Source: an uncultured Actinomycetes bacterium
GTDB lineage: Bacteria > Actinomycetota > UBA4738 > HRBIN12
Assembly (NCBI GenBank): GCA_963704725.1
Contig: OY969934.1
Span: 672,001-736,000, forward strand
Reading direction: 5' to 3'
Length of the DNA stretch: 64,000 bases
Numbering within the stretch: position 1 is the stretch's first letter; each line of letters opens with the position of its first letter. Both the position numbers and the translations under genes were made by a program. Below the pieces are notes generated by a model. That model did not search any database. It saw only the letters and a list, made by a program, of their open reading frames with translations, and was not told where the DNA came from. This document shows, in pieces, positions 569-29,192 of the stretch.

Positions 569-2188
569 TCAGGCGCCAGGGCGATAGCGGTTGGTGATCG
601 GCATCCGCCGGTCGCGGCCGAACGCCTTCGGCGTGATCTTGATCCCCGGGGCGGCCTGCCGCCGCTTGTACTCCGCGAGGTCGACCAGCGCGACCACGCG
701 CCGGACGATGTCGGCGTCGGCACCTCGCGCGACGAGCTCCTCCGGGGAGCGATCGTCCTCGACGTACGCCTCCACGATCGGGTCGAGGACGTCGTAGGGC
801 GGCAGGGAGTCGGTGTCCTTCTGATCGGGACGGAGCTCCGCGGACGGCGCCTTGGAGACCACGCGCTCGGGGATCGGCTCCACCGGCTCGCGGGCGTTGC
901 GCCACCGGACGAGCTCGTACACGAGCGTCTTGGGGACGTCCTTGATCGGCGCGAAGCCGCCGGCCATGTCTCCGTACAGCGTGGCGTAGCCGACGGCGTA
1001 CTCGCTCTTGTTGCCGGTGGCCAGCACGAGCGAGCCGAACCGGTTCGACATCGCCATCAGGATGTTGCCGCGGATCCGCGCCTGCATGTTCTCCTCGGCG
1101 ATCCCCGGCTCGGTGCCGCGGAACGGCGGCTCGAGAGCGTGCAGGAGCGCCTCGAAGGGCTCGTCGATGGGGACGGTGTCGAGCTCGATCCCCAGCCGCC
1201 GGGCGACTTCTGCCGCGTCCTCGAGGCTCTCCGGCGACGTGTAGCGCGAGGGCATCGTGAGCGCGCGAACGGCGTGCGAGCCGAGCGCGTCCACGGCCAG
1301 GACGGCGACGAGGGCCGAGTCCACCCCCCCGGACAGGCCAAGCACCACCTCGCGGAACCCGTTCTTGCGGACGTAGTCCTGCAGGCCGAGGACGAGCGCC
1401 CGGTACACCTCCTCCGGCTCCCGGGGCGGCGGTGGGCGCTCCTGGCCGGAGGACAGGTCGCCGTCGATGTCCACGATCAACAGGTCCTCGTCGAACGAGC
1501 GCGCGCGGTGGCGCAGGGTTCCGTCGGGCGCGACCACGATGCTGGCGCCGTCGAACACCAGCTCGTCCTGCCCCCCCACGGCGTTGACGTAGACGATCCA
1601 CGCCCCCGTCTCGAGCGCGCGGTCCCGGCAGATCTCGACCCGCTCCTCGGACTTCCCCCGGTGGTAGGGCGAGCCGTTGATGTTCAGGATCACCGGCGTG
1701 CGGCGCTCGGCGTATGCGTCGAACGGTGGCCCCGGCGTCCACGCGTCCTCGCAGATCGACAGGCCGAGCTCGGAGCCCGCGAGCCGGACGGGGCACTCGG
1801 TCTCGCCGGGCACGAAGGTCCGCCGTTCGTCGAACACGCCGTAGTTGGGCAGCTTCACCTTGTGGTATCGAGCGACGACGTCGCCGCCCGCCACGAGCGC
1901 GGCGGCGTTGTGGATCCCGAGATCGGATCGATCCACGAACCCCGTCAGGACGGAGCACCCCCCGGCGGTCTGCTGCGCCAGGCGCGAGAGCGCCTCCAGG
2001 TTGTCCTGCACGAAGGACGGGCGCAGCACGAGGTCCTCCGGCGGGTACCCCGTGATCGCGAGCTCCGGGAAGACGATCACGTCGGCGTCGGCCTCCGTCG
2101 CCCGCGCCGCCCACGCCGCCATCAGCTCCACGTTGCCGTCGAGGTCGCCGACGGTGGGATCGATCTGACCGAGCGCGACGCGCACCAT
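569..2188 (-). CDS. nadE: Glutamine-dependent NAD+ synthetase
   Basis: N-terminal CN-hydrolase (FPELAITGYPPED, KLPNYGVFDE, ICED) plus NAD synthase (GLSGGVDS, ENMQARIR, TGNKSE, GYATLYGD, PSAEL). Confidence 0.96.
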   Translation of the reverse strand: MVRVALGQIDPTVGDLDGNVELMAAWAARATEADADVIVFPELAITGYPPEDLVLRPSFVQDNLEALSRLAQQTAGGCSVLTGFVDRSDLGIHNAAALVAGGDVVARYHKVKLPNYGVFDERRTFVPGETECPVRLAGSELGLSICEDAWTPGPPFDAYAERRTPVILNINGSPYHRGKSEERVEICRDRALETGAWIVYVNAVGGQDELVFDGASIVVAPDGTLRHRARSFDEDLLIVDIDGDLSSGQERPPPPREPEEVYRALVLGLQDYVRKNGFREVVLGLSGGVDSALVAVLAVDALGSHAVRALTMPSRYTSPESLEDAAEVARRLGIELDTVPIDEPFEALLHALEPPFRGTEPGIAEENMQARIRGNILMAMSNRFGSLVLATGNKSEYAVGYATLYGDMAGGFAPIKDVPKTLVYELVRWRNAREPVEPIPERVVSKAPSAELRPDQKDTDSLPPYDVLDPIVEAYVEDDRSPEELVARGADADIVRRVVALVDLAEYKRRQAAPGIKITPKAFGRDRRMPITNRYRPGA

Positions 2189-24359: not shown

Positions 24360-25634
24360 ATGGGCTCGACCCTTGGGCGGCACCGGGACCGCCCGCGCGT
24401 GGCCGTCGTCAGCCTCCACACCTCGCCCCTCGACCAGCCGGGCGGCGGCGACTCCGGCGGCATGAACGTGTTCATCCGCGCCGCGGCGGAGCGGATGGCG
24501 GCCAAGGACCTGGATGTGGACGTCTTCACCCGGTGCCGGGGGCGGGGTGGCCCCGAGGTGGACGAGCTGGGGGGGTCCCGGCTCATCCACGTCAAGGCGG
24601 GACCGTGCGCGCCGGTCCCGAAGGAGGAGCTCCCGAGATACCTTCCCGAGTTCCTCGGCGGCGTGCTGCACCGCCAGCGGGCCGAGGGGACCCGGTACGA
24701 CCTCGTGCACACCCACTACTGGCTGTCCGGGTGGGTGGGGCGCAGCACCAAGGAGATCTGGGGCGTGCCGCTCGTGGCCTCCTTCCACACGCTCGGGAAG
24801 GTGAAGAACTACTCGCTCGCCCTGGGCGAGCGTCCGGAGCCCGAGGTCCGGCTGGCCGGTGAGGAACGCGTGATCGCCGAGGCCGATCGTCTGGTCGCGG
24901 CGACGCCCTCGGAGGCCGCTCAGCTCGTCGGCCTGTACCGCGCCGAGTCGGAGCGGATCCGGCTCATCCCGCCGGGCGTGGACCACTCGCTCTTCTTCCC
25001 GCGCCCCCGCGACGAGGCCGCCGGGCGGCTGCACCTGGCGGGAGCCCGGCTGCTCCTGTTCGTGGGCCGGCTCCAGGTCCACAAGGGCCCCGACGTTGCC
25101 GTCCGGACCCTCGCCGAGCTGATCGCGCGCGATCCGGGCGGGACGGCGGACGTCGTGCTGGCCCTCGTCGGCGGGCCGAGCGGAGCCGGCCACGGCGCCG
25201 AGGTGGCCCACCTCATGGATCTCGCCTCCGCCCTCGGCGTCGGCGAGCGCGTGATGTTCTTCCCCCCGCAGCCGCAGGCTCGGCTGGCGGACTTCTACGC
25301 CGCGGCGGAGGCCGTGCTCGTCCCGTCGCGCTCCGAGTCGTTCGGGCTCGTAGCGCTCGAGGCGCAGGCGTGCGGGACGCCGGTGATCGCGGCCGGGGTG
25401 GGGGGGCTCCGCTACGTGGTCGACGACAGGGTGACCGGGTACCTCGTGGAGGGCCACGACCCGAGCGACCACGCGGATCGCGTCCTGTCGATCCTGCGCG
25501 ACGGGGCCGGCGCCCGCCGGATGGGCGCGGCGGGCGTGGCGCACTCCATCCGTTTCTCGTGGGACTCGACCGCCGACCGGATGGTGACCGTGTACCGCGA
25601 GCTCCTCGACGGCGGCGCCGCCCCGGCCCCGTGA
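24360..25634 (+). CDS. mshA: D-inositol-3-phosphate glycosyltransferase (mycothiol synthesis)
   Basis: HTSPLDQPGGGDSGGMNV, HTHYWLSG, HTLGKVKN, SESFGLVALEAQACGTP. Confidence 0.9.
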   Translation: MGSTLGRHRDRPRVAVVSLHTSPLDQPGGGDSGGMNVFIRAAAERMAAKDLDVDVFTRCRGRGGPEVDELGGSRLIHVKAGPCAPVPKEELPRYLPEFLGGVLHRQRAEGTRYDLVHTHYWLSGWVGRSTKEIWGVPLVASFHTLGKVKNYSLALGERPEPEVRLAGEERVIAEADRLVAATPSEAAQLVGLYRAESERIRLIPPGVDHSLFFPRPRDEAAGRLHLAGARLLLFVGRLQVHKGPDVAVRTLAELIARDPGGTADVVLALVGGPSGAGHGAEVAHLMDLASALGVGERVMFFPPQPQARLADFYAAAEAVLVPSRSESFGLVALEAQACGTPVIAAGVGGLRYVVDDRVTGYLVEGHDPSDHADRVLSILRDGAGARRMGAAGVAHSIRFSWDSTADRMVTVYRELLDGGAAPAP

Positions 25635-26173
25635 CCGTCCCCGTCCTGCGGGGGCGCGAGGTCGTCCTCCGTCCCGTCGAGGATGCCGATCACCCCGTCA
25701 TCCTCGAGTGGCAGAACGACCCCGAGGTGTGGTGGTGGATGGACTACGAGCGGACCTTCACGCTCGAGGACGTCCACGCGAGCGAGGCGCTCGCGAAGGT
25801 GGAGGGACACCCGTTCCTGATCGAGGCGCCGGACGGCCGTCCCATCGGACGTATCGGGTTGAACCAGTTCAGCGAGCGCGACGAGACCTGCTCGCTGTAC
25901 GTCTTCGTCGGCGACGCCCGGTACCGGGACACCGGCTTCGGCCAGGACGCCATCCTCACGCTGCTCCGCTGGGGCTTCGACACCTTCGGGCTGCACCTCG
26001 TGCAGCTGTGGGGGTTGTCGACGAACACGCGCGCGATGCGCGCGTACGAGCACGTCGGGTTCGCCGTCGACGGAACGCTTCGGGAGCGCTCGTTCAAGAG
26101 CGACGGGGAGCGGTACGACCGCACGATCTTGAGCATCACGCGACGCGAGTTCGACGCGTTGCACCGCGCATAG
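25631..26173 (+). CDS. GNAT (RimJ/RimL-like) N-acetyltransferase
   Basis: GTG overlaps mshA stop; LRPV, IGRIGL, N.RA.RAYEHVGF, GTLRE. Confidence 0.85.
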   Translation: MTVPVLRGREVVLRPVEDADHPVILEWQNDPEVWWWMDYERTFTLEDVHASEALAKVEGHPFLIEAPDGRPIGRIGLNQFSERDETCSLYVFVGDARYRDTGFGQDAILTLLRWGFDTFGLHLVQLWGLSTNTRAMRAYEHVGFAVDGTLRERSFKSDGERYDRTILSITRREFDALHRA

Positions 26174-26298
26174 GCTCGCCGAACGCGTTGCGGCGCAACG
26201 GTGTACGGACTGCCGACGTCATGCGTTCATGTTCTTGTCACTCTTTCCACCGTGCCCGCTACCAGCGCATATGGCGTCTGACCTGGGGGTTCTTCGAG

Positions 26299-26328
26299 TT
26301 GACCCCCGTACCGGGGCGACGTTAGATT
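26299..26328 (+). promoter_or_regulatory. Sigma-A-like promoter of the candidate ncRNA
   Basis: TTGACC-N18-TAGATT; predicted start about 26335. Confidence 0.7.
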
Positions 26329-26334
26329 CGCGTC

Positions 26335-26609
26335 GCTCCGAGCAGTCGGAGCGGCCGAGTCAGGGAACCGAAGTCGGGACCCCTGGGAAAGCCGTAAGGC
26401 CAACTGGGCGCACCTGCTCGTATGGTTGGGAAGGCCAACTAGCTGTGCGGGTGGGGAGGCTCGGGCGGCCCCAAAGCCCAACGAAAGGGTCTACGGCCAG
26501 GAAACCGAGACGGCTGTGAGAGGTTGCTCGGGGCACCTGAGCCCGAGGGGCCGACGGTGGTTGGAGGCTTCGGCTTCCGACGAGCCGGAGGTCCCTCGGG
26601 TTCTTTTCT
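26335..26609 (+). ncRNA. Unassigned large structured non-coding RNA (~275 nt)
   Basis: Promoter upstream; 5' hairpin GCTCCGA-GCAG-TCGGAGC; nested helices; GCC-GTAA-GGC and C(TTCG)G tetraloops; 3' hairpin + T-run; no credible ORF. Confidence 0.7.
26582..26609 (+). terminator. Intrinsic terminator-like hairpin
   Basis: gagccggagg-tc-cctcgggttc followed by ttttct. Confidence 0.6.
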
Positions 26610-26703
26610 GCGACCCTCGTTCTCTCCGGCCGGCGTCCTCTCCTTCCCCTCGCGCCGGGCCCGTCTTGTTCGCCTTCGTCCACGCGGGTAGCGTTGCGCG
26701 GAC

Positions 26704-27342
26704 ATGGCATCCGAGCGCGAGAGCGACGCCCGCGGCCGGCGCGACCAGATCGTCGAGGTGGCCATGCGTCACTTCGCCGAGCACGGCTACCGAGGAGCGC
26801 GCGTCGAGGACATCGCGGCCGAGGTCGGGGTGGCCAAGGGAACGGTGTTCCTGCACTTCGGCAACAAGGAGGGGCTGTTCCTCGCGGCCTTCGAACGCGC
26901 GGTGCGCGAGCTCCCCGCCTGGCTCGACGTCCCCGAGGAGGTCAAGGAGCAGGGCTTCTGGGCCGTGCTCGAGCACTGGCTCGTGCGCACGGAGCAGTTC
27001 TTCGCCGAGGTCTGGGTGCAGAACCGGGTGGCCATGATCGGGCGCTACGACACGGGGCTCGGCATGCGCCGGCCGATCGACCGGTTCATGCGCAGCGAGG
27101 ATCCGTACGGGACCCTGGAGTTCGTCGAGTTCGGCGTCCGGCGCGGCGAGATCCGCGACGACGTCGACAGCGACATGATCGCGTCGATGCTGGACTGGCT
27201 GGCCGAGCGGTTCCAGGACGCGCTGGCGAGCGAGGAGCTTGATCCCGGCCTCGTGCATCGCAAGCCCTTCCTCCCGGAGCGTCGCGCGAACCGGATCCGC
27301 GAGTTCCTGGAGCTCGTGCGCACGGGGCTCGCCGCGCGCTGA
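26704..27342 (+). CDS. TetR family transcriptional regulator
   Basis: IVEVAMRHFAEHGY..VEDIAAEVGVAKGTVFLHFGNKEGLF. Confidence 0.92.
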   Translation: MASERESDARGRRDQIVEVAMRHFAEHGYRGARVEDIAAEVGVAKGTVFLHFGNKEGLFLAAFERAVRELPAWLDVPEEVKEQGFWAVLEHWLVRTEQFFAEVWVQNRVAMIGRYDTGLGMRRPIDRFMRSEDPYGTLEFVEFGVRRGEIRDDVDSDMIASMLDWLAERFQDALASEELDPGLVHRKPFLPERRANRIREFLELVRTGLAAR

Positions 27343-27397
27343 GGCGGGCCTCCGGGCCTCGGCTGGGTGCTGGGTCCGGGCTGGTAGCGTGCCCGCC

Positions 27398-28318
27398 GTG
27401 AACGGTCCCCTGCTTCGCGGACCCGTCCTGCGGCTCACGCGGGCGGGATGGTTCAAAAGGCTCGCGACCGGCCGGGCGGGGTGGCTGGTCGCGTCGAGGT
27501 TCGTGGCGGGCGACACGCTCGACGCCGCGATCACCACGGCCGGTGTGCTCGAGCGCCGCCAGTGCGCGACGATCCTCGACCACCTCGGCGAGAACGTGAC
27601 GGCGCCCGAGCACGCCGCCGAGGCGGTCGCCGCGTACGTCCGGGCGCTCGACCGGATCGAGGACGAGCCCGGCCTCGATCTCACGATCTCGGTCAAGCTC
27701 ACGCAGCTCGGGCTCGACTTCTCGACGGACCTGGCGGTGGCCAACCTCGAACGCGTGGTGGACGCCGGCCGCGACCGTGTCGTCATGATCGACATGGAGT
27801 CGAGCGCCTACGCCGACCGCACGCTCGAGGTGTTCCGGGCGCTCCGGGCCCGGACCGACCGGGTCGGGGTCTGCCTGCAGGCGTGCCTGCACCGCACGCC
27901 GCGCGACGTCGAGGACCTGCCGCTCGCGTCCACCGTTCGGCTCGTCAAGGGCGCCTATCTCGAGCCCCCCGAGGTGGCGATCGAGGATCGGCGGGAGGTC
28001 GACCGCGCCTTCGCCCGCCTGGCCGCCACCATCCTGTCGCGGGGCCACACCCTGCACGTCGCCACGCACGACCCGGACCTGCTCGAGGGGACCCGGGCGT
28101 ACGTCGAACGGACCGGCACGTCGTGGAAGCGGGTGGACTTCCAGTTCCTCCTCGGCGTGCGTCGCGACCTCCAGGCGCGCTACGCGGACGAGGGGTATCC
28201 GGTCACGATCTACGTCCCCTACGGGACGGAGTGGTACCCCTACCTCACTCGACGGTTGGCCGAGCGCCCTGCCAACATGTGGTTCTTCCTGTCGAACCTG
28301 GCGCGGGTTCGGCGATGA
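27398..28318 (+). CDS. Monofunctional proline dehydrogenase
   Basis: RFVAG, LGE, SVKLTQLG, IDME, RLVKGAY, ATHD, YVPYG..W..YL.RRLAERPAN. Confidence 0.92.
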   Translation: MNGPLLRGPVLRLTRAGWFKRLATGRAGWLVASRFVAGDTLDAAITTAGVLERRQCATILDHLGENVTAPEHAAEAVAAYVRALDRIEDEPGLDLTISVKLTQLGLDFSTDLAVANLERVVDAGRDRVVMIDMESSAYADRTLEVFRALRARTDRVGVCLQACLHRTPRDVEDLPLASTVRLVKGAYLEPPEVAIEDRREVDRAFARLAATILSRGHTLHVATHDPDLLEGTRAYVERTGTSWKRVDFQFLLGVRRDLQARYADEGYPVTIYVPYGTEWYPYLTRRLAERPANMWFFLSNLARVRR

Positions 28319-28358
28319 CCGCGGAACGCAGAGGGGGATCGATGAGGGAGAGCCGGAC

Positions 28359-29192
28359 GTGACCGACGGGCGCACCGTGGCGTTCCTGGGCGGCGGCCGC
28401 ATGGGTGAGGCGCTCGTCTCGGGACTGATCCGCTCGGGCGGGCGAACCGCCGACGAGATCGTGGTCACGACCCGGCGCGAGGAGCGGGCCCACGAGATCG
28501 CGGAGCGGTACGGCGTCGCGACGACCCGCTCGAACCCGGACGCCGTGGGACGGGCCGAGGTCCTCGTCCTCATGGTCAAGCCCCAGGACATGGGCACGCT
28601 GCTGGACCAGATCGCCCCGGCCGTCACGCCGCAGCACGTCGTGGTGAGCTTCGCGGCGGGGATCCGAACCTCGTTCGTCGAGCGCCGCCTCGTGCCGGAC
28701 GTGCCCGTGGTCCGCGTGATGTCGAACGTCGCCGTGCTCGTCGACGAGGCGATGTCGGTGGTCGCGCCGGGCGCGCGGGCCGAGGACTCGCACCTGGCGA
28801 TCGCAGAGGAGATCCTCGGCTACGTGGGACGGGTGATCCGGCTGAAAGAGTCGCACCTGGACGCGATCACGGCGACGAGCGGCAGCGGCCCCGCCTACTT
28901 CTTCCTGCTGGCCGAGGCCATGATCGAGGCCTGCATCCTTCTGGGGCTGTCTCGCGACGTCGCGACGGAGCTGATCGTGCAGACCATGCTCGGCTCGGCC
29001 AAGATGCTGCGTGACACGGGGAAGCACCCGGTCGAGCTGCGGGAGATGGTGACCTCCCCGGGGGGAACGACGATCGCGGCGATCCGCGTCCTGGAGGAGA
29101 CCGGCGTGCGGGCCGCCTTCCTGAACGCGATCGACGCGGCGTGCCGCCGGGGCGCCGAGCTGGCGCAGGGCGGCGACGAGGACGAAGGCTAG
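28359..29192 (+). CDS. proC: Pyrroline-5-carboxylate reductase
   Basis: GGGRMG, VKPQ, SGSGPAY, VTSPGGTT. Confidence 0.95.
   Translation: MTDGRTVAFLGGGRMGEALVSGLIRSGGRTADEIVVTTRREERAHEIAERYGVATTRSNPDAVGRAEVLVLMVKPQDMGTLLDQIAPAVTPQHVVVSFAAGIRTSFVERRLVPDVPVVRVMSNVAVLVDEAMSVVAPGARAEDSHLAIAEEILGYVGRVIRLKESHLDAITATSGSGPAYFFLLAEAMIEACILLGLSRDVATELIVQTMLGSAKMLRDTGKHPVELREMVTSPGGTTIAAIRVLEETGVRAAFLNAIDAACRRGAELAQGGDEDEG

Follow-up and report, generated by a model that had tools for sequence, protein, structure and literature searches.

Introduction

Among described RNAs, those closest to the gene analyzed here, a ~273-nt RNA gene in a 64-kb stretch of DNA (64,000 nt; hereafter the window) from an uncultured Actinomycetes bacterium (contig OY969934.1), are 6S RNA, Ms1, CoRP, the CsrB/RsmZ sponge RNAs, and raiA, OLE, ROOL and GOLLD. 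CsrB/RsmZ sponge RNAs are free-standing and terminator-ended, with repeated short hairpin modules that vary widely in number and conserved activator-type sites upstream of the promoter. 6S RNA is an abundant, stable, free-standing small RNA (~185 nt) with its 5' end locked in a closing helix; it has a large central bubble resembling an open promoter, binds the sigma-A holoenzyme and templates product RNA. Ms1 binds the core of RNA polymerase. The orphan RNAs raiA, OLE, ROOL and GOLLD are well conserved, have an intricate fold and are often highly expressed. Ms1 (MTS2823/scr3559; ~300 nt) is very abundant and has a conserved sigma-A-like promoter and a terminator (PMC4191392, PMC9130861). 6S is defined by a rod-shaped fold with a central bubble, and the same shape has been predicted for Ms1 (PMC4191392). 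CoRP of Corynebacterium glutamicum, an actinobacterial RNA, is abundant, 516 nt long and was found only by experiment; it demonstrates that an RNA can bind polymerase without resembling 6S or Ms1. Each species has been proposed to contain one abundant RNA associated with polymerase, which may be unlike either of them (PMC11077062). raiA also occurs in Actinobacteria, with an ambiguous cis or trans status (PMC5737381).

Like Ms1, the RNA of the window occurs in Actinobacteria, is similar in size and apparently abundant, and forms a gene unit of its own that is bounded by a conserved sigma-A-like promoter and a terminator. It differs from Ms1 in sequence and at the level of Rfam models (the basis of the comparison): Rfam includes an Ms1 model (PMC9130861), and no family falls below an e-value of 0.4 on the region. 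It also differs in genome neighborhood, being located between GT4/GNAT genes and tetR/proline dehydrogenase/proC genes instead of between an oxidoreductase and a HAD-IB hydrolase; the TIGR01490 (HAD-IB) genes of the genome are at positions 589049 and 331815, the RNA at 698335. A scan beside the first HAD-IB gene revealed nothing that resembles a promoter, and none of the 250-nt windows there folds strongly (best z −2.25 vs −3.86 for the window RNA with the same scoring); by eye, that stretch contains a tRNA-like sequence. The folds differ as well: Ms1 combines a long hairpin, opened by a central bubble, with two short terminal hairpins, whereas the window RNA has many branches within a closing stem, and its 3' rod stands apart; only an alternative 5' hairpin and the long 3' hairpin of the window RNA resemble parts of Ms1.

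The differences from the other RNAs are of the same kinds. RF00013 (6S) has no match at e-values up to 10, the fold is not a rod with a bubble, and the RNAs of the window family are longer than 6S (273–527 nt vs ~185 nt) and highly conserved in primary sequence. CoRP, compared here by description, is flanked by tRNA genes and cleaved into two pieces. As in CsrB/RsmZ, the number of modules varies between lineages (here, 1 to 10 GNRA hairpins); however, no CsrA was found in the genome, the multiple GGA motifs that Csr/Rsm RNAs display in hairpin loops are not seen, GGAA-like purines flank the hairpins or sit in internal loops while the loops are GNRA, and the short type has a complex covarying core instead of simple repeats. 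For raiA, OLE, ROOL and GOLLD there is no Rfam match, and architecture, neighborhood and taxonomic range differ. We therefore treat the likeness to Ms1 and 6S as a functional analogy only: it is kept alive by abundance, size and the lack of a detectable 6S, and none of the defining features of these RNAs that we looked for was found.

Results

A free-standing, structured RNA gene

Positions 26335 to ~26607 (+) of the window are an independently transcribed, structured small RNA gene with its own strong, conserved promoter, a 3' hairpin and a U tract. An earlier note, made from the letters of the window alone, had proposed a free-standing structured RNA of ~275 nt of no known class in this place. 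The promoter, the bounded conservation, the covariation, the lack of an Rfam family, the varying downstream genes and a paralog without a cis target bear this out; the detailed fold in the note was mostly wrong, and its main interpretation holds. The features of the gene are as follows.

26299–26328 (+), promoter: −35 box TTGACC (26299–26304), 18-nt spacer, −10 box TAGATT (26323–26328)
26335–~26607 (+), the RNA itself, ~273 nt; start predicted 7 nt past the −10 box, end within the U tract
26335–26347 with 26522–26534 (+), helix P1: 13 pairs, 5 compensatory, 99.5% paired
26522–26534 (+), 3' strand of P1, GGUUGCUCGGGGC, almost invariant across the 74 sequences of alignment A3
26351–26357 with 26510–26516 (+), helix P2: 7 pairs, 3 compensatory
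26358–26509 (+), conserved core domain, helices 3–8; the same motifs are found in homologs from other families and in a ~190-nt paralog
26374–26382 with 26487–26496 (+), core helix 5 of the covariation fold
26384–26387 with 26477–26480 (+), core helix 6 of the covariation fold
26398–26409 with 26459–26470 (+), core helix 7 of the covariation fold
26413–26429 with 26439–26455 (+), P7 (helix 8, the long arm): 17 bp and a 9-nt loop, 9 of 17 pairs compensatory
26535–26538 (+), linker between the 3' strand of P1 and the 3' hairpin
26539–26603 (+), 3' hairpin of ~65 nt that doubles as the terminator stem: 30 pairs, 12 compensatory (A3)
26604–26609 (+), U-rich tail UUUUCU, present in most homologs (A2/A3) and missing in some (e.g., L029, L016 and L114)

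The near-consensus promoter TTGACC-N18-TAGATT, correctly recognized in the earlier note, is the sole sigma-70-like site found by a promoter scan in the 2 kb from 25500 to 27500 (one found vs 0.1 expected). A TTGAC-N17-21-TAnnnT promoter with the same RNA start is present in 71 of 80 related loci, and most of the remaining loci run into a contig end; the promoter is also kept in alignment A1. The similarity among relatives extends from the −10 box to the U tract and no farther (BLAST and alignments). Folded from 26335, the plus strand reaches −157.8 kcal/mol (z −6.58), and none of 200 shuffled sequences was as good; for the complementary strand z is −0.74 and 46 of 200 shuffles were as good, so the stability is specific to the plus strand. 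The gene is present as a single copy in its own genome. A simple terminator scan returned 0 sites and did not call the U-rich tail, because the actual hairpin is longer and more interrupted than the scan rule permits.

A fold supported by covariation

From an alignment of 29 homologs (A2), RNAalifold gives a consensus of 90 pairs; three rows of A2 come from genomes marked as unpublished (L003 from G011, L027 from G029 and L028 from G037). In this alignment 97.2% of the cells pair, and 39 of the 90 pairs show compensatory changes (161 cells). None of 500 column shuffles reaches any of the five measures, and when the partners are shifted by 1–3 columns, pairing falls to 32–51%. In an alignment of 56 sequences, the pairs with the highest mutual information are Watson-Crick swaps within the predicted helices, e.g., 26375/26495 (GC 31, CG 21), 26356/26512 (CG 24 and UA 22 of 56 sequences) and, in P7, 26427/26441 (UA 33, CG 15, UG 5). 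The supported structure has 11 helices: a multi-branched core that is closed by P1 and a separate 3' hairpin. In P1, the pair 26340/26529 changes from G-C to A-U in all of the long-type relatives described below.

The covarying helices of the core are joined by stretches that are invariant in all 29 A2 sequences (invariant columns in A1/A2); the near-invariant unpaired stretches include CAGGGAACCGA, GGGAAAGCCGUAAGG, the P7 loop GAAGGCCAA (26430–26438), CCCAAAGCCCAACGAAAGGG and CAGGAAACCGAGAC. The RNA contains two internal sequence duplications, CAGGGAACCGA with CAGGAAACCGA and GGGAAAGCC with GGGAAGGCC. Positions 4 and 7 of the 9-nt loop of P7 vary together (GC 29, AU 12, GU 4, AC 6 and AG 1 of 52); despite this suggestive association, we rejected a kissing-loop dimer formed by a self-complementary P7 loop, as the loops of several homologs are not self-complementary.

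The base of the 3' hairpin is a 14-bp helix, followed by a GA/GA internal loop (26553–54 with 26588–89), a 4-bp helix, a G vs GA loop (26559 with 26582–83), a 9-bp stem and a UUCG loop (26569–72). Both internal loops are invariant over the 74 A3 sequences, and GGUGG and CGAGCC are invariant or almost so. On inspection of A3 the internal loops are 2x2 (GA/GA) and 1x2, and a reading of them as K-turns was rejected.

This fold keeps parts of the one drawn in the earlier note and replaces the rest. The long arm (the cacctgc/gcgggtg region) was placed correctly and is the P7 described above. A hairpin at the 5' end (26335–26352) can form; however, it has one compensatory change and excludes the better-supported P1. 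The UUCG-capped hairpin exists, although not as an element separate from a terminator that follows it, because it caps the single ~65-nt hairpin before UUUUCU. The closing stem (26367–26383 with 26547–26558) is not supported: 444 of 500 shuffles match its covariation, and its middle pairs are broken in 15–19 of 29 sequences. The second arm (ctcgggc/gcccgag) clashes with supported helices, its 26460–26465 being within helix 7 and its 26541–26547 within the 3' hairpin, and the hairpin with the GUAA tetraloop likewise overlaps the covarying helix 7. The pseudoknot between tcagg and cctga is 92% paired, yet 20–63 of 500 shuffles reach its values, and it is not kept in distant homologs (in which the linker differs).

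A constant handle and an exchangeable inner domain

The lengths of the RNAs fall into three classes, 259–290, 341–436 and 509–527 nt. The longer classes keep the promoter, both strands of P1 and the 3' hairpin, and their core is replaced by arrays of short GNRA-capped hairpins; such versions, with 3–10 GNRA hairpins each, are found at L038 1561–2076 (+), at L039 1528–1893 (−) and in 34 of the loci L046–L125. The hairpins of the arrays are mostly preceded by GGAA-like purines (e.g., GGAAGGCCGCAAGGCC and GGAGCGCCGCAAGGCGAGCC). GNRA hairpins number 1.1 per RNA in the short class, 5.7 in the long class (range 3–8) and 9.5 in the very long class, compared with 0.7–1.0 in shuffled sequences, and the tetraloops of the long types are GCAA in 121 and GCGA in 47 of 202 cases. 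Two RNAs of these longer classes fold with z-scores of −8.8 and −9.5. The window RNA has a single GNRA hairpin, GCCGUAAGGC, preceded by GGGAAA, that is, in the form of one array module; it is used in part by the covarying helix 7.

These comparisons show that the family consists of a constant handle (the 13-bp P1 and the ~65-nt rod-like 3' hairpin with its two invariant purine-rich internal loops) and an exchangeable inner domain, which in the window is the multi-branched core rich in invariant unpaired purine-rich stretches. The core also occurs on its own: at a second locus, a paralog of ~190 nt combines a P1 of 9 bp with a core that lacks helices 5 and 6, and it also has a U tract.

L186 612–800 (−), L187 ~748–935 (+), L188 (−): core-only paralog

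BLAST finds this core-only paralog in the long-type genomes G057, G058, G048, G139, G059 and G107. In G057 (L186), an EamA transporter gene converges on it from one side and a short-chain dehydrogenase (SDR) gene diverges from it on the other; placed tail-to-tail with the first and head-to-head with the second, it cannot be the leader of any gene. The idea that long-type genomes complement the exchange by keeping the core at a second locus holds for some of them only: G022, G014, G041 and G042 are without a core by model R2 (below). Just past the U tract of the paralog, L187 (~960–1090) and L188 (~960–1050) have a GC-rich stretch with long inverted repeats that may be another structured RNA or a terminator complex.

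In another genus, we observed a candidate small RNA of ~105 nt (L192 ~925–1023 (−), L193 ~870–967 (+) and L194 ~855–952 (+)) that has the base of the 3' hairpin (GAGCCCGAGAGGCUGA...GGUCUCUCGGGCU) and, in L192 and L193, also TTGTCACTGTTTC upstream; from a reading by eye, it is located after an amidohydrolase-like gene.

Relation to known RNA families

With 4227 models, Rfam 15 gave 0 matches at the gathering score across the 64-kb window. On 26150–26750, at e-values up to 10, eight chance-level matches were obtained, none below 0.4; the best of these (a Pyrobaculum snoRNA, microRNA precursors and a 15-nt SECIS-like hairpin) are all far under their own cut-offs and were rejected. Six variant loci searched at e-values up to 1 returned nothing usable, including for raiA, OLE, ROOL and GOLLD. 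The genome that contains the window is one 3.45-Mb contig (95% complete), in which SRP RNA, RNase P RNA and tmRNA each score over the cut-off at other places, so the window RNA is none of these copies. No 6S RNA (RF00013) was found in this genome at e-values up to 10; the C. glutamicum control likewise fails, so this is weak evidence in this phylum. 6C RNA (RF01066) was not found at e-values up to 1 in a search that is insensitive, as the C. glutamicum control stays under the cut-off. CsrA (PF02599) has no match in the genome at e-values up to 0.01, and controls were matched in 3 genomes. A full-text search of the literature and targeted look-ups in two motif-discovery papers (PMC8632094 and PMC5737381) gave no description of the RNA; supplementary motif lists were outside the scope, and an earlier listing under another name is possible. 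As an RNA class it is new, a previously undescribed family.

Distribution

BLAST finds the stretch in 36 of 41 related genomes (its own included), with full-length matches of 73–94% identity. A scan with exact patterns and one genome per species found at least 119 stretches, of which 80 are given as loci; nearly all of the matches are in metagenome-assembled genomes labeled only Actinomycetota, Actinomycetes or Actinobacteria bacterium. A match in Streptomyces (L116) is a chance match in coding DNA, and in L053 the resemblance is confined to a hairpin like the one at the 3' end; both were discarded.

For a wider survey we used two models, R1 (the 3' strand of P1 and the 3' hairpin) and R2 (the core); the tallies include some unpublished genomes, and only the occurrence in family f52 depends on them. 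R1 is present in 144 of 151 genomes of the class, all within one order (families f1–f8), and in 99 of the 101 of good quality. Among 151 genomes of the phylum, R1 is present in 17. Its matches outside the order are weaker; those in f11 and f18 are true full-length homologs that share the promoter and the 5' end, the motifs of the core, P1 and the 3' hairpin. R2 is present in 16 of the 151 phylum genomes, in the same lineages and in none of ~45 other families sampled. The motif pair CAGGGAACCGA..GCCGTAAGG occurs in 28 of 401 phylum genomes (reversed-pattern controls, 0), in families f1, f2, f6, f11, f18 (15 of 21) and f52, the last solely in the unpublished genome G299. Diverged full homologs thus occur in three other families of the phylum. 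In genus g32, R1 has second, weaker matches because of the ~105-nt small RNA that shares the base of the 3' hairpin.

Representation in RNA libraries

In an index of public runs, 20 runs contain parts of a 701-nt query (shares 0.19–0.31), and six of these are RNA libraries. At 85% identity or more, contigs on the RNA number 5,874 in X7 (groundwater), 200 in X9 (unspecified metagenome), 2,542 in X13 (soil) and 12,012 in X18 (soil), so that all four of the RNA libraries examined, from four studies, contain matching contigs; the habitats are those given on the labels of the runs. They are confined to 26316–26604 and have very large summed depths; these are contigs and not reads, so depth cannot rank genes, RNA libraries may contain DNA, and uncovered flanks prove nothing. 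No contigs lie on 26100–26315 or 26628–26800, except for a depth of up to 2.3 at 26220–26291 in X7, which is not evidence either way, since the flanks of relatives are too diverged. In three of the four runs the depth is lower over the 3' hairpin, which cannot be interpreted from contigs. One X9 contig ends at 26604 and continues with CT and an A run; this single record fits a 3' end in the U tract. Many close variants of the RNA have been assembled at high multiplicity from the RNA libraries of several habitats.

Genome neighborhood

In the window, the RNA gene is in the gap between a GNAT gene (25370–26173; Pfam) and tetR (26704–27342; TetR_N Pfam match). Of 31 oriented loci, 27 have a gene for a GT4 glycosyltransferase (mshA-like) on the same strand 5' of the RNA, and 18 have proC on its 3' side, within flanks of no more than 1.5 kb. 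The gene directly downstream is tetR only in family f1 (18 loci); elsewhere it is proline dehydrogenase (L017, L018 and L027), proC (L022/L023) or an isochorismatase-like gene (L028 and L181, by eye).

26689–26694 (+), candidate −10 box of tetR, TAGCGT, 9 nt before the ATG at 26704; outside the RNA

This box, which the earlier note had taken as favoring an independent RNA over a leader, suggests a tetR transcript that may be leaderless or nearly so, and it has counterparts: TAnnnT boxes 9–10 nt before the start codon of the gene 3' of the RNA are found in the window and also in L028, L029 and L039. Because such boxes near the start are typical of leaderless actinobacterial genes, the downstream genes are probably separate transcription units.

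The proline dehydrogenase gene of the window (27239–28318; Pro_dh, e-value 1.7e−27) is located between tetR and proC; the 304-aa ORF at 27448–28362 is a spurious overlapping frame without a Pfam match. The pairing of a catabolic proline dehydrogenase with a biosynthetic proC is conserved across the order. In L181–L185 and L019, the gene just upstream of the RNA is not GNAT but a small conserved protein with a YbjN-like C-terminus (read by eye); because other families have a different adjoining upstream gene, the position of the RNA after the mshA-like gene is probably older than its immediate neighbors.

Function

We tentatively favor, at somewhat less than an even chance, a function as an abundant trans-acting RNA that binds a protein. 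The RNA would accumulate to high levels, act in trans and bind a protein that it sequesters or scaffolds; the invariant handle would be a fixed docking platform for the protein, and repeated contact modules, from one to many of them, would come from the inner domain. The idea of protein sequestration comes from the invariant handle and the repeated modules of purines plus GNRA hairpins, which look like a docking platform with variable contacts. An action in trans is supported by the variation of the downstream gene (tetR in 18 of 31 loci), by the separate −10 boxes of these genes and by the core-only paralog without a downstream target. Of single partners, RNA polymerase is the most plausible, with the RNA standing in for 6S, Ms1 or CoRP where no 6S is detectable; taken by itself, this narrower idea, by analogy, is rather unlikely. 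It is consistent with the missing 6S, the lack of an Ms1-like RNA at the one syntenic place examined, the location of RNase P RNA, tmRNA and SRP RNA elsewhere in the genome, sizes (273–527 nt) comparable to those of Ms1 (~300 nt) and CoRP (516 nt), and the published proposal of one abundant polymerase-associated RNA for each species (PMC11077062).

Several observations weigh against these proposals. The covariation fold is multi-branched and not a rod with a central bubble, the primary sequences of 6S and Ms1 usually vary far more than this one does, and there is no synteny with Ms1 (698 kb for the RNA vs 589 kb and 332 kb for the HAD-IB genes). The genome has no detectable CsrA, the classic partner of sponge RNAs with repeated hairpins. 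Contig depths cannot rank expression, and the libraries may contain DNA; the missing match to 6S is weak, with the C. glutamicum control also unmatched by RF00013. Finally, the four long-type genomes G022, G014, G041 and G042 have no core that R2 detects; the core must then be dispensable, unless the two kinds of inner domain differ in role.

A different way to account for the same conservation is an RNA that acts mainly via its own fold, that is, an orphan-type RNA with tertiary structure (a ligand sensor in trans, a ribozyme or a self-assembling particle) in which the invariant unpaired nucleotides build a pocket or tertiary contacts and the GNRA loops make RNA-RNA contacts. The very many invariant unpaired positions between covarying helices are typical of such RNAs, and the internal duplications (CAGGGAACCGA/CAGGAAACCGA and GGGAAAGCC/GGGAAGGCC), the dominance of GNRA tetraloops in the long types and the co-variation of P7 loop positions 4 and 7, which is compatible with a self-complementary kissing contact, point the same way. 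However, that loop is not self-complementary in the core-only paralog and in several distant homologs (AGCC, AGCG), none of raiA, OLE, ROOL and GOLLD matches in Rfam, and an essential, precise pocket is hard to reconcile with the exchange of the whole core for simple hairpin arrays in many genomes; we regard this explanation as unlikely. The purine-rich single strands (GGGAA, GGAAACC, GAAAGG and GGAGG) could instead titrate pyrimidine-rich targets by base pairing, e.g., the C-rich loops of small RNAs, sites in mRNAs or the 3' end of 16S rRNA. The unpaired purine-rich motifs are repeated in the short type and multiplied in the long types, and the RNA is free-standing with its own terminator hairpin; but base-pairing small RNAs usually have short seeds, whereas ~150 nt are nearly invariant here, and 6C RNA was not found in the insensitive search described above, so a decoy is decidedly less probable.

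The constant orientation of the RNA, which in every case precedes the proline dehydrogenase/proC cluster and is transcribed in the same direction, raises the question of a cis leader (a riboswitch, attenuator or protein-binding leader) whose terminator controls read-through into tetR, proline dehydrogenase and proC. Within the 1.5 kb of flank, proC follows in 18 of 31 loci, with no gene between it and the RNA in L022/L023; proline dehydrogenase is directly 3' in L017, L018 and L027 and at 27239–28318 in the window. The RNA ends in a terminator-like hairpin, and switching is conceivable, as the 3' strand of P1 (CUCGGG) could pair alternatively with the 5' side of the terminator (CCCGAG; 6 bp) and the 5' end can form its own hairpin. 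These alternative pairings have no covariation of their own, and the invariant internal loops in the terminator stem are unneeded by a plain terminator. The adjoining downstream gene differs among genomes and has its own −10 box 9–10 nt before its start in each case, the core-only paralog has a convergent gene on its 3' side, and the inner domain (190–440 nt) can be replaced by hairpin arrays; taken together, these make a leader improbable. Hardly credible is a reading without any RNA gene, as a conserved DNA element or a short coding frame. Mechanical ORFs overlap the region (26229–26519 (+) and 26360–26710 (−); 96 and 116 aa), as is common in GC-rich DNA; however, the substitutions in the helices are compensatory, the stability is specific to the plus strand, indels of 1, 2, 4 and 20–250 nt are tolerated, and thousands of contigs from RNA libraries fall on the RNA.

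Returning to the trans-acting, protein-binding RNA, we can extend it, as an unlikely possibility, to a housekeeping ribonucleoprotein RNA of a new class that uncultured soil Actinomycetota may possess: the handle would recruit a conserved protein, the inner domain, whether a tertiary-folded core or up to ten GNRA hairpins in an array, would be multivalent (e.g., sequestering or assembling a cellular machine in dormancy), and the handle would be reused by several small RNAs under one upstream element.

Very few bacterial RNAs unite near-universal presence in a class, ~80–94% identity across an order, an intricate covarying fold and very heavy representation in environmental RNA libraries; those with such a combination (RNase P RNA, tmRNA, SRP RNA, 6S and Ms1) are central to cell physiology, and the window RNA is none of them. 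It escaped culture-based RNA discovery because its lineages are known only as metagenome-assembled genomes. If it does sequester polymerase, the proposal of one abundant polymerase RNA per species would gain a third or fourth unrelated architecture; if otherwise, it would be a new orphan RNA class in which natural swaps of the whole inner domain are useful experimentally. In either case, the RNA would be a sensitive marker of the activity of the clade in metatranscriptomes of soil and groundwater.

The shared upstream region

Upstream of the promoter, the window has two further features.

26235–26247 (+), conserved upstream element TTGTCACTCTTTC, ~50 nt 5' of the −35 box; read in the window
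26259–26288 (+), upstream repeat region: a degenerate repeat, CATATG, then TGACCTGGGG; candidate transcription-factor site, by eye

An element of the TTGTCACTCTTTC type, in the same orientation, is 5' of the RNA promoter in L039 and L186–L188, and in the form TTGTCACTGTTTC it precedes the small paralog in L192/L193. By eye, L038 and L039 have TGACCTGCG..CATATG-like..TGACCTGCG at the matching place, and L186–L188 have the reverse-complement form GCAGGTCA..CATATG..GCAGGTCA upstream of the paralog. The layout that recurs in the window (26235–26288), L038 (1480–1525), L039 (2010–1925 (−)), L186–L188 and L192/L193 is TTGTCACT(C/G)TTTC, then two TGACCTGCG-like repeats that flank a CATATG-like center. 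One conserved upstream region is therefore common to the promoters of the main RNA, the ~190-nt paralog and the ~105-nt small RNA; from its sequence, it looks like a common transcription-factor site that may define a small regulon of RNAs.

Farther upstream, 13 nt past the stop codon of the GNAT gene, a perfect small hairpin, CGTTGCGGCGCAACG, is present at 26186–26200. It gives a weak SECIS_4-like Rfam match on both strands (e-values 0.47 and 9.5) and is most likely merely the end-of-gene hairpin of the GNAT transcript.

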